From NCBI GenBank assembly GCA_015233155.1, contig JADFYG010000002.1, forward strand, positions 110,734 to 174,733: a stretch of 64,000 bases of DNA. The letters run 5' to 3'. Of the stretch, positions 16,412-20,323 are shown in pieces (the first letter of the stretch is position 1; each line of letters opens with the position of its first letter). The DNA comes from Candidatus Rifleibacteriota bacterium. Its GTDB lineage: Bacteria > Muiribacteriota > Ozemobacteria > Ozemobacterales > Ozemobacteraceae. The notes under the pieces were generated by a model. That model had not been told where the DNA came from and made no database searches. It was given only the letters and a program-made list of their open reading frames with translations. The position numbers were made by a program, and so were the translations under genes.

Positions 16412-17542
16412 ATGATAGTCGGCGACGTAATAGTTCGCGGAGCTGGTGGTGGTAAGCCGATTAAGGAATGGCGGGAAAATGGTCTTGTTACAGCAGCCAC
16501 GGGCTGGGGTGAAATCGGATCCGCAAGAATTGCCGATGTTTTTGTCACTCACGATTCGAATGGCTCCATTCTCTCGATGAAAACCTCGAGAGGTCACACT
16601 CTCCGTTGTAGTCCTGAGCAGCTTTGTTTTTGTAAATTCGATCCCATGAGCCGGCTGTATTATCTGTACTTGATGGAACGCTCTACTATGGGGTTTCGCG
16701 TAGGAATGAGCCAGGATTTGTTGCGCGATGTTTTTGCGCTGCAAAGCACGAAACTCGTTGAAAATGATGCTTCTGAGATAGTTGATCGAATCTGGATCAT
16801 AGAAGGAACCGAAAGTCTCCCGAAAGCTGTTTTCCTGGCGCGTTATGCGTCATGCAAATATGGGTTGCCCGATGTCCCGTTCACAGGGCAGCATGCGACA
16901 GCCGAATTACCGGACGAACTTTTGCGCGAATTATTCAACCGCATTGACACCCCGTCACGTGCGCATCAGTTGCTGCTGGACTCGCTGATGTTTGAAGAAT
17001 ATCCACATATTACCGTAAAACTGAATAAAAATGCGCCCACGGCAAGCAATGCTGTTCAATTCATTGTTTTCGGTGCAGCCGAAAAAGCTGGTAATTGTCC
17101 GGGTTATGCTCATCTGATACGAATCGACTCAGCCATCGAACTGAATCGTGGTGAGCATAAAGCCTTCAAGCGACGGATGAACAATCGCGGTCTATGGCAT
17201 CTGGAAGTCGCACGCGAAGAATTTGAAGAAGCACAACTTTTTGTCAAGACCCTCGCAGCCCTGGATAATCTCGAAATCATTAAAAAAATTCAGTTAACCA
17301 AGAAAGCTCCCTTCTACATTCTCCCCGCGTCTCACGTGAAGCTTGGCATGACCGTGTCTGTCGCTGGCGGACGCAGCATAGAGGAGGACACAGTGACAAG
17401 TATCACCGTTGAATCCTGGGATAATCCTCTATACGATCTTAAGACTGAGGGAATACATAATTACATCGCTGGCGACTGGGTCGTTATGTCCTACTCCGGG
17501 CAGATCTCAACTGCTCCATCACTAAAGCGGGATGTCGTGTGA
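16412..17542 (+). CDS. Stand-alone intein-like (Hint domain) protein lacking the splicing residues
   Basis: Hint-N-like start (IVGDVIV..GGGKPIKEW..G.V; KTSRGHTLRCSPEQ), Hint-C-like end (LPASHVKLGM...LYDLKTEGIHNYIAGDWVVMS); no Cys1, no block-B TxxH, no terminal HN; GTGA overlap with pcrA. Confidence 0.75.
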   Translation: MIVGDVIVRGAGGGKPIKEWRENGLVTAATGWGEIGSARIADVFVTHDSNGSILSMKTSRGHTLRCSPEQLCFCKFDPMSRLYYLYLMERSTMGFRVGMSQDLLRDVFALQSTKLVENDASEIVDRIWIIEGTESLPKAVFLARYASCKYGLPDVPFTGQHATAELPDELLRELFNRIDTPSRAHQLLLDSLMFEEYPHITVKLNKNAPTASNAVQFIVFGAAEKAGNCPGYAHLIRIDSAIELNRGEHKAFKRRMNNRGLWHLEVAREEFEEAQLFVKTLAALDNLEIIKKIQLTKKAPFYILPASHVKLGMTVSVAGGRSIEEDTVTSITVESWDNPLYDLKTEGIHNYIAGDWVVMSYSGQISTAPSLKRDVV

Positions 17543-19842
17543 TTGCGTCCGCCCCCCGATCTTCCGTCGTTCAGGCTGTTGCAACACTTAACCCGCGTCA
17601 GCGAGAAGCCGTCGAAATCCTTTCCGGGCCATTGCTTATCGTCGCAGGCGCCGGTTCGGGGAAAACCAAGACACTGACTATTCGGGTCGCGCATCTCATC
17701 GAGCAGGGAGCATCGGCGAACTCTATTCTTGGCGTGACATTTACCAATAAAGCTGCTCGCGAGATGCGTGAGCGTGTAGAAATGCTGATGCCAGGCGTCG
17801 GTTCAGCGATAACTTTGACGACATTTCATTCTTTCTGTGCCATGACATTGCGTAGATGGTGCAATCACCTCGGATACCCTCATGAATTCACCATCTACGA
17901 TGCTGATGATCAAGAACGTCTTATGAAACAGGTCATAGCGGAGCTGGATATCGATGGAAAGAAATTCTCCCCATCATTTCTTCTCAACTGCATTTCGATT
18001 GCAAAAAATGATTTGATTTCACCGACTGATTACCAACCGCCCGGCAAGGAAAAGGAGCTGATCAAATCAGTCTACGAAACATATCAGAAAAATATTTTCG
18101 CGGCTGGTGCAATGGATTTCGATGATCTGCTTTTTATGACATGGCGTTTGCTTTCAGAAAATCTGGATTTGCTTGAAAATATGCAACGCCGTTACAAACA
18201 TTTTTTTGTTGACGAATATCAGGACACCAATTTTGCACAGTATAAACTGATCTCCCTGCTTTCGCGTCAAAGCGGGAACCTCTGCGTGGTCGGAGACGAA
18301 GACCAGTCAATTTATGGTTGGCGTGGAGCAAGCATTCGGAACATCATCGAGTTTGAAAAAGATTTTCCTGGCGCTCGTGTTGTCGTACTTGACCAGAATT
18401 ATAGATCCACTCAACGTATTCTCGATGCGGCAAGCAGCGTCATAGCAAAAAATTCCGGCCCCAGAAAAAAACAACTTTGGAGTGAAATGAAGGGTGGCGC
18501 CCCGATAACTTTTATCTATGCTGATGATGATCGTGGAGAAGCAGATAGGGTGTCGAACGAAATAGAACGTCTCCATGTCGACGAACAACTTCCCCTCGGC
18601 AGTATGGCCGTGTTGTTTCGCATGAACAGCCAATCCCGTGCAATAGAGCAAGCTTTAGTGCGAAAACAGATTCCATATGAAATGACTGGTGGCACAAAAT
18701 TTTTTGGGCGAAAAGAGGTAAAAGATGTGCTCGCCTACCTGCGTGTCCTGGTAAATCCGCGCGATCACATCTCTCTGCGTCGCATTATCAATGTCCCGAC
18801 ACGTGGAATCGGCGATACTACGGTATCTCGTCTGACCGAAGAAGGCCCCCTCTGGGAAGCCTTGGCATCCCGCGCCACGGGACAAAAACCTGGAAAGCTG
18901 GCTCCATTCTATCGACTCATGCTTGATTTACGCGAACTTGCTGGAGAGGGTGGCATATTCGCCGTTGCCCAGTCCGTAATTGATCGCACTGAATATTTGC
19001 ACTTCCTGCGTCAGACAGACGAGGAAAAAGCGGAGGAACGTATATCCAACGTCGACAGTCTTCTCTCCGACATGAGGCTCCAGGAAGAAACAAATCCGGA
19101 GATTACACTTGCCGGTTATCTGGAGCAAGCCGCTCTCCACGCCGAAGCTGACGATCTCGATGAACGCGTTGAACGCGTACATCTGCTGACAATGCACAAC
19201 GCCAAAGGACTGGAATTCCCGAACGTGTTCATCATGGGCCTTGAAGAGGGAGTATTTCCTCATCACTCCTCGAAGGACGAGCCCGAAAAACTCGAAGAGG
19301 AGCGGCGTCTCGCATACGTTGGCATGACACGTGCTATGAAAAGGCTTTATCTATCGGCCGCACGTAGACGCATGATATTTGGTCAATGGGGATTTAATCC
19401 AATTTCCAGATTTATTCACGAGGTCCCACGAGATTTGTTCGACAGGGAAAAGCCTCCAATGCCGCTGTCCAACAATTTTAATCGAACAGCTCCTTCCTGC
19501 GGAGATTCGTCATCTCCTCGATCATTACAGGGATTTAACGGAAACGCCGTTGCCTTTTCGGCAAAATCAACAGAGTCATTAAAAGAGAAACCATACGCCG
19601 GTTTATTTTCGGGACCATCGAGACAATCGGTTACGGCTGAAGTGGTTCAAAATGGGATCCAGGGAACAATGGCAAATATTCATGTCGGCGTGAAGGTCTT
19701 TCACGTTATTTTTGGACCAGGCAGAGTGATAGCAGTGGATGGCGCATCACTGGCTGATTTTAGAGTCCATATCGAATTTTCTAAAGTCGGAAAGAAGACA
19801 TTACTCTTGCAGTATGCTCAGCTTCGGGTTATAAATATCTAA
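17539..19842 (+). CDS. pcrA: ATP-dependent DNA helicase PcrA/UvrD
   Basis: AGAGSGKT, TFTNKAA.EM, VDEYQDTN, VGDEDQSIYGWRGA, QNYRST, TMHNAKGLEF and EEERRLAYVGMTRA motifs; C-terminal Tudor-like domain. Confidence 0.95.
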   Translation: MIASAPRSSVVQAVATLNPRQREAVEILSGPLLIVAGAGSGKTKTLTIRVAHLIEQGASANSILGVTFTNKAAREMRERVEMLMPGVGSAITLTTFHSFCAMTLRRWCNHLGYPHEFTIYDADDQERLMKQVIAELDIDGKKFSPSFLLNCISIAKNDLISPTDYQPPGKEKELIKSVYETYQKNIFAAGAMDFDDLLFMTWRLLSENLDLLENMQRRYKHFFVDEYQDTNFAQYKLISLLSRQSGNLCVVGDEDQSIYGWRGASIRNIIEFEKDFPGARVVVLDQNYRSTQRILDAASSVIAKNSGPRKKQLWSEMKGGAPITFIYADDDRGEADRVSNEIERLHVDEQLPLGSMAVLFRMNSQSRAIEQALVRKQIPYEMTGGTKFFGRKEVKDVLAYLRVLVNPRDHISLRRIINVPTRGIGDTTVSRLTEEGPLWEALASRATGQKPGKLAPFYRLMLDLRELAGEGGIFAVAQSVIDRTEYLHFLRQTDEEKAEERISNVDSLLSDMRLQEETNPEITLAGYLEQAALHAEADDLDERVERVHLLTMHNAKGLEFPNVFIMGLEEGVFPHHSSKDEPEKLEEERRLAYVGMTRAMKRLYLSAARRRMIFGQWGFNPISRFIHEVPRDLFDREKPPMPLSNNFNRTAPSCGDSSSPRSLQGFNGNAVAFSAKSTESLKEKPYAGLFSGPSRQSVTAEVVQNGIQGTMANIHVGVKVFHVIFGPGRVIAVDGASLADFRVHIEFSKVGKKTLLLQYAQLRVINI

Positions 19843-19864: not shown

Positions 19865-20323
19865 ATGTTCAGGTTTTTGCGGTTCTTGTGGAAGATTTTC
19901 GTTCTTGCCAGCGCTTTTGGTATTGGATATATCATTGGTCGCGAACATAGCTTCGAGGAAGATGAAGAGTGGGAAAACGAAGAAGCTGAGAACGATAAGA
20001 AGGATGAGAAGAATAAAGAGGCTACCAGCCCCACCCCATCTGCGGCTTCTGTTGTAACTGGGGCAGAAAAGCCATTTACCTTCGAGTATACTGATCCTAA
20101 GGCCACCCACGTTGCTGTAGTGGGCGATTTTAATGACTGGAACAAAGACAAGAGCTCCATGACGTTGGAAAATGGCGTTTGGAAGCTGACTGTTAATCTC
20201 AAGCCCGGTCGGCATGAGTACAAGTTGGTAATCAATCACACCGACTGGATCACAGATCCGAAATGCAGTGAAACCGTTGCTGACAAGGTCGGCGGCCGAT
20301 CATCACTGGTCGAGATCCACTGA
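19865..20323 (+). CDS. Membrane-anchored CBM48/AMPK-beta-like glycogen-binding domain protein
   Basis: N-terminal TM segment, acidic linker, VAVVGDFNDW...LKPGRHEYKLVI..WITDP; AGGAGG RBS. Confidence 0.8.
   Translation: MFRFLRFLWKIFVLASAFGIGYIIGREHSFEEDEEWENEEAENDKKDEKNKEATSPTPSAASVVTGAEKPFTFEYTDPKATHVAVVGDFNDWNKDKSSMTLENGVWKLTVNLKPGRHEYKLVINHTDWITDPKCSETVADKVGGRSSLVEIH

Follow-up and report, generated by a model that had tools for sequence, protein, structure and literature searches.

The stretch of DNA analysed here, referred to as the window, comprises 64,000 nucleotides of contig JADFYG010000002.1 from a Candidatus Rifleibacteriota bacterium (Ozemobacteraceae). Between glnA and pcrA it carries, on the forward strand like the domains, pcrA and intein site described below, an open reading frame (ORF) of 376 amino acids (positions 16412-17542), which homology searches, a structural model and alignment identify as a free-standing, apparently splicing-dead homologue of the intein found in motif III of UvrD/PcrA helicases. 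An in-frame TAG lies five codons 5' of the ORF's ATG, and its stop codon overlaps the predicted pcrA start in the tetranucleotide GTGA (17539-17542). The pcrA gene (17539-19842) is annotated as a UvrD/PcrA helicase with a C-terminal tudor domain and is intein-free: the sequence, read alongside the rest of the family, has an empty intein site in motif III (18292-18315), GDEDQ/SIY, with the junction at 18306/18307. A first-pass annotation, made from the letters alone, had proposed that a PcrA intein became a separate gene here, and the ORF, the upstream TAG, the overlap with the GTG start of pcrA (17539) and the empty site all lie as it described them. The window genome holds a single copy of the ORF. 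We consider it very likely that a former PcrA intein has been domesticated as a separate, constrained gene.

An AlphaFold model of the ORF protein (predicted local distance difference test, pLDDT, 84.4; predicted template modelling score, pTM, 0.83) bears out the Hint fold that had been claimed for it, with structure comparison giving Z values of 18-20 and root-mean-square deviations (rmsd) of 1.4-2.1 Å over 124-142 residues. The N-terminal half of the Hint domain, located by model, structure search and alignment, spans residues 1-76 (16412-16639), with Met1 in the Cys1 column and S67-P-E-Q70 at block B, as previously read; the C-terminal half spans residues 297-360 (17300-17491), where M359-S360 replace His-Asn. 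The ORF had been said to end in VVMSY. VVMS(Y) does close the Hint domain, but the frame continues for a further 16 residues, none of them Cys. Between the two halves lie a GIY-YIG-like domain (approximately residues 77-200; 16640-17011), a weak fold assignment predicted to be inactive, and a second domain (domain 2; approximately residues 201-296; 17012-17299), in which the model places a beta sheet plus a helix (271-285) that is conserved across the phylum. Searches by features, structure and Pfam gave no named match for domain 2, which is not evidence of a novel fold.

The origin of this protein is apparent from its matches. A word-index search for longer forms returned only three, and we relied instead on a search of 50%-identity representatives, which returned 446 matches. 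The homology to the motif-III inteins runs over the full length, with 24-33% identity and E-values down to 6e-50. The best 150 of these 446 are mostly internal stretches (approximately residues 255-615) of proteins of 950-1150 amino acids, flanked by GDxDQ/C...HN/S or C, and all 46 of the long proteins scanned have UvrD and Intein_splicing Pfam matches. Top matches of this kind were what the first-pass annotation had predicted, and the flanking residues together with the full-length homology bear out descent from the PcrA motif-III intein. The PcrA tree gave no answer as to whether the PcrA of the family is the original host lineage. The 150 proteins yielded a reference set of 116 intact inteins, with 34 short, partial or free-standing sequences omitted; because Cys and His-Asn were the selection criteria for this set, the counts in these two columns are circular where intact inteins are concerned. 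A search for proteins of near-equal length gave 65 matches, with source names indicating Candidatus Riflebacteria and Ozemobacteraceae, and the 62 full-length ones that were aligned are the family members of the residue counts given here. Clusters of such proteins carry the Atlas names Ca. Rifleibacteriota and Ca. Muiribacteriota. Three other free-standing forms look intermediate: P0174, without Cys1 but with a retained His-Asn end; P0071, which retains the block B Thr-His; and P0184.

Every residue required for splicing at the two ends has been lost. The Cys/Ser1 nucleophile is present in none of the 62 members (the column holds Met in 56, Val in 2 and a gap in 4), and neither the penultimate His nor the terminal Asn occurs in any. 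The block B His, invariant in the intact inteins (116/116), is His in 25 members and Gln in 37. Class 3 inteins use a block F cysteine; that position is Asp in 31 members, Asn in 29, Arg in one and Lys in one, which rules out class 3 splicing. Likewise, an N-extein remnant is ruled out by the upstream TAG and by 47 upstream stretches in which tblastn found no PcrA fragment at E<1. By every route that can be tested from sequence, the ORF protein is without splicing. Given that the start Met falls in the Cys1 column and that the terminal His-Asn is missing, the gene encodes almost exactly the excised intein.

The character of the insert is weakly indicated. The GIY-like region matches I-TevI (1ln0) with Z 4.8 (rmsd 3.1, 74 residues, model 82-181) and 1ywl with Z 5.3 (rmsd 4.7, 94 residues), values in the range of common arrangements. 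An hhalign comparison of intact inserts with ten GIY-YIG proteins gave E 4.6e-4, compared with 0.022 for the best of 20 shuffles; a match to a PHROG homing endonuclease (E 0.01) appeared in only one of six segments. A T5orf172 lead for residues 77-200 had a score of 0.75; the T5orf172 profile, built from three sequences, performed no better than shuffles. The insert folded alone from a single sequence reached a pLDDT of 35.5. The Pfam matches of the 62 members include no LAGLIDADG family, the endonuclease type of WHO and HO elements. Several weak signals thus make residues 77-200 weakly GIY-YIG-like, which is as far as the proposal of a GIY-YIG-like start can be sustained. According to a passage of PMC1564403, the hallmarks of GIY-YIG nucleases are a central Arg and a C-terminal Glu. 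The putative Arg, whose position is an inferred assignment with an R or K nearby at 105 in 52 of 62 members, is present in 109 of 116 intact inteins and in no family member (N118 in the ORF protein), and the putative Glu in 110 of 116 intact inteins and 30 of 62 members (A143 here); the first Tyr of the pattern persists in 57 of 62. On these residues the domain is predicted to be nuclease-dead, and the nuclease role offered by the first-pass annotation is disfavoured by the missing Arg, the absent Glu and a loss of basic charge.

The intact inteins P0072-P0215, L153 and L157 represent a widely distributed family of UvrD/PcrA inteins; no Pfam endonuclease matches its insert, which carries a conserved Tyr-Gly-Arg-Glu pattern like that of GIY-YIG. 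Among predicted viral structures, a similar overall shape is found within a 3'-5' helicase and within an adenine methyltransferase. If this insert is a GIY-YIG nuclease, it would be notable beside a 2006 survey that reported no GIY-YIG nuclease in inteins (PMC1564403).

Within the phylum, 81 of 87 genomes are positive, 73 with a first profile and 8 more with broader profiles, and they fall into three states: free-standing in 70, inside PcrA in nine and intact inside a degenerate PcrA in two. Free forms number 50 in family f1, which is the whole class of the window, and 2, 1, 4, 1, 1, 4 and 7 in f2, f3, f5, f6, f7, f8 and f10, respectively; f7 and f10 lie outside that class. The gene is single-copy in 50 of the 51 f1 genomes. 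The nine f11 genomes have long frames, and the five that were read contain an intact intein in PcrA motif III. Two f4 genomes hold an intact C...HN/S intein in a PcrA with degenerate Walker B and motifs III and VI, and have further UvrD-like genes elsewhere. Degenerate intein-bearing PcrAs, with the tudor domain retained, lie at L042:2762-5875 and L043:3688-6765 (genomes G004 and G005); P0150, P0159 and P0163 are also of this kind. The six negative genomes are G053 (66% complete), G062 (77%), G067 (78%), G073 (85%, with a contig end in galU), G071 and G072; a 342-residue frame 5' of galU in G067 proved to be a shadow frame. Among 39 metagenome loci, which overlap the genome set and are not independent of it, 31 are free-standing, seven are inteins in helicases and one is a fragment. 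One metagenome copy (L154) breaks off after 270 codons, through either sequencing error or true pseudogene formation.

The arrangement next to pcrA is a property of the largest family. In 48 of 50 f1 genomes, pcrA lies downstream in the same orientation, the other two loci being at contig ends; an in-frame pcrA start lies within 20 nucleotides of the stop in 46 of these 48, with the exact four-nucleotide overlap in three only, and motif III is empty in all 47 visible pcrA genes (one of the 48 is not in the locus). The 5' neighbours vary, leaving pcrA as the sole constant neighbour there, and pcrA is downstream in 30 of the 31 free-standing metagenome loci. The coupling to an intein-free pcrA seen in the window is therefore conserved, as the first-pass annotation had anticipated, and the protein is probably produced with PcrA by translational coupling. 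Elsewhere the order differs: gene-galU-(x)-pcrA in f7 and six f10 genomes; before galU and away from pcrA in f6 and f8; before chemotaxis genes (response regulator, chemoreceptor) in f2 and f3; and 5' of a STAS gene and a PolC-type polymerase in f5. The degenerate helicase of f4 lies directly 5' of the same PolC-type polymerase, and this shared downstream gene suggests that the exteins may have been lost in place.

The gene is under purifying selection and not in pseudogene-like decay. Its frames are full length, and its median ratio of nonsynonymous to synonymous substitution (dN/dS) is 0.083 (62 within-genus pairs), compared with 0.087 for PcrA (50 pairs), as estimated by the Nei-Gojobori method from pairs with dS of 0.1-1.5, which are not independent of one another. 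By domain, the values are 0.094 for Hint, 0.092 for the GIY-like domain and 0.072 for domain 2; pairs from f5, f8, f10 and the f11 insert are constrained too (approximately 0.03-0.25). Inheritance within f1 is vertical: the gene and PcrA trees share 18 of their 23 and 22 strongly supported splits, and all seven multi-member genera are single branches in the gene tree. In quick trees of the inteins, the phylum forms together make up a single branch apart from outside inteins, with Shimodaira-Hasegawa-like approximate likelihood ratio test (SH-aLRT) support of 90, and of 99 in a second tree for which four unnamed proteins were grouped with the phylum forms after the first. The f1, f6, f7 and f8 forms group at 93 and their PcrAs at 96; one and two origins of the free gene were not told apart (approximately unbiased test, p 0.218). 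The full insert is retained in all three states; a mobile element at fixation is expected to lose its endonuclease domain, according to a passage on the homing cycle (PMC4760082). Forty positions reach 90% conservation or more within the family and are rare in intact inteins.

What the retained protein does can be proposed only tentatively. We favour, at somewhat less than even confidence, a non-enzymatic accessory partner of PcrA or of its DNA-repair pathway; of the three roles raised by the first-pass annotation, that of helicase partner is thus the most likely. While the intein resided in PcrA, each splicing event would have freed one intein per helicase, and the host may have come to depend on the freed protein. 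That protein would then have outlived its host context, whether released by splicing from PcrA or from a degenerate PcrA, or made directly in its excised form by a free gene, which starts at intein residue 1 with Met. We infer a partner role because the ancestral intein and the helicase were made in a ratio of one to one, which coupling would preserve in the largest lineage. Residues conserved in the phylum or family near helix 271-285 (F277, T280 and Q294), together with the loss of positive charge, would fit a protein-binding surface. In its widest form the proposal is a little more speculative still: that the phylum depends on the excised product of the PcrA intein, which gained its function inside PcrA, outlived that host and was re-encoded free, perhaps twice; that this product acts as a helicase or DNA-repair cofactor of a new class; and that its intact ancestors make up a widespread family of inteins equipped with a homing endonuclease of GIY-YIG type.

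Several observations weigh against a partnership with PcrA. In f2, f3, f5, f6 and f8 the gene does not adjoin pcrA, and since galU is the constant neighbour in f6, f7, f8 and f10, linkage to pcrA may reflect history and not function; the phylum-wide occurrence, also away from pcrA, weakens any strictly local role. One genus has lost the gene. In G071 and G072 it is absent from the conserved locus, where mnmA adjoins galU, and was not found elsewhere; this loss, and the strong divergence of the f10 forms, imply that the gene is not essential. Domain 2, still basic at an isoelectric point (pI) of 9.1, fits DNA binding as well.

That last point belongs to the main rival explanation, in which the protein would be a domesticated, nuclease-dead DNA-binding factor of transcription or the chromosome, like WhiA, independent of PcrA. 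We regard it as rather unlikely on the present analysis. The constraint over the whole insert, the invariant R90, R96 and R268, the basic domain 2 and the several loci far from pcrA would all suit such a factor. The fall in charge speaks against it: median pI is 6.4 in the family against 8.9 in the intact inteins, and net charge has gone from +6.5 to -3 overall, from +2 to -5 in the GIY-like domain and from +7 to +2 in domain 2. Nor does the model or the Pfam scan contain an added helix-turn-helix or zinc finger. WhiA itself has an added helix-turn-helix and no Hint domain, whereas the ORF keeps the entire intein, Hint fold included, and intact ancestors survive in its sister lineages. The likeness is that both are single-copy, vertical, constrained bacterial genes in which catalytic residues were lost; WhiA (DUF199) is described in a passage of PMC7282813 as a bacterial, host-kept transcription regulator that arose from a LAGLIDADG homing endonuclease and lost cleavage.

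A domesticated role that has nothing to do with DNA, such as that of a sensing or protein-binding module linked to galU or another neighbour, seems doubtful. It would accord with the neutral to acidic surface and with the neighbours listed above, namely galU in f6, f7, f8 and f10, STAS/PolC in f5 and the chemotaxis genes of f2 and f3, but no such neighbour is common to the lineages, and in the largest family pcrA alone is constant.

The first-pass annotation had also raised immunity to re-invasion. Here the dead protein would bind the empty homing site in pcrA and block inteins, or tune pcrA expression, a role that we find improbable. Family pcrA sites are empty wherever they are visible (47 of 48), and synonymous sites near the junction show a slight excess of conservation (z 1.8-2.0; permutation p 0.045-0.058, uncorrected); an earlier z of 2.9 at the site had been inflated by six-fold codon families. 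This support is borderline and far below another peak in pcrA, third positions at the intein site vary freely, and selection of PcrA's strength would be hard to attribute to rare invasions.

That the protein is an active homing endonuclease in free-standing form, a WHO-like element of bacteria that travels with a resistant pcrA allele, is very improbable. The ORF, like the WHO genes, is an extein-less intein without motif G beside its host gene, and the Glu in 30 and first Tyr in 57 of 62 members speak for such activity; the Arg is gone from all 62, however, and the Glu from the ORF protein. As described in PMC7282813, WHO and HO proteins are intein-zinc-finger fusions that still cut DNA, HO is a domesticated intein-derived endonuclease, and WHO elements are extein-less, lack motif G and lie beside the host gene in polymorphic clusters with host-gene fragments. 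Four tests of WHO character came out negative for the ORF family. In place of a C-terminal zinc finger of three to five CxxC it has the 16-residue Cys-free tail; no duplicated pcrA fragment lies in the 47 upstream stretches; 50 genomes, one per species, hold one copy with full-length frames, no clusters and no pseudogenes; and the tree is vertical and follows genera. None of 50,697 phage records gave a match. The ORF is moreover bacterial, lies 5' of its host gene and has a GIY-YIG-like insert predicted to be dead. A decaying relic or assembly artefact, merely a spacer for pcrA translation, is largely refuted, the apparently broken L154 notwithstanding, since neutral decay and misassembly are contradicted by the same arrangement in 47 other genomes and a dN/dS equal to that of PcrA.

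Set beside known systems, the ORF works like a domesticated homing element such as HO or WhiA; it is not a member of the WHO/HO group and is no longer a functional intein. With the class 1 UvrD/PcrA motif-III inteins it shares full-length homology, a Hint domain with a two-domain insert and the same target site, empty next door; it differs in being a separate, vertically inherited gene without exteins, no longer basic, whose Cys1, His-Asn and putative Arg are gone. The Hint domains of bacterial intein-like and Hedgehog proteins form part of larger proteins and retain their cleavage chemistry. Those compared here (2lwy, 6y75 and 1at0) are likewise Hint folds outside a classical intein, but the ORF is free-standing, has kept an endonuclease-type insert and has lost the chemistry. 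The titles and abstracts returned by literature searches, in a library short of most subscription journals, contain no description of the ORF family, though intein tables in supplements, for example that of PMC4760082, which lists UvrD inteins, could include members; for extein-less or free-standing inteins they yielded the WHO paper alone, and for Riflebacteria with intein, none.

If the favoured explanation holds, the gene would be a bacterial counterpart of yeast HO and a pointer to an unknown PcrA cofactor. The benefit of inteins to their hosts is an open question, discussed in passages of PMC4760082 and PMC8987985 as conditional splicing; here the benefit would reside in the excised intein itself. 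Because living genomes keep each stage, in a working helicase, in a degenerate helicase and free, the proposal is directly testable by biochemical comparison.

Further features were observed around the locus and in the genome. Scanning for promoters and terminators gave 7 against 5.1, no better than chance. The strongest synonymous excess in the family's pcrA falls at approximately 18610-18636 of the window (codons 358-366, ATG AAC AGC NTN AGC), a peak about 5 standard deviations above the mean that is not seen in other families and possibly marks a DNA or RNA signal. In L173 (genome G012) and in L146, the dead intein and pcrA are separated by a gene of roughly 1.9 kb, the start of which is predicted to resemble a signal peptide. 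The window genome contains another intein above the Pfam cut-off (G000:C124:144-902). Finally, a small gene after pcrA (19865-20323) encodes a protein with a hydrophobic N-terminal stretch as well as an acidic linker and a CBM48 glycogen-binding domain, and is also found 3' of pcrA in L001, L002 and L052.

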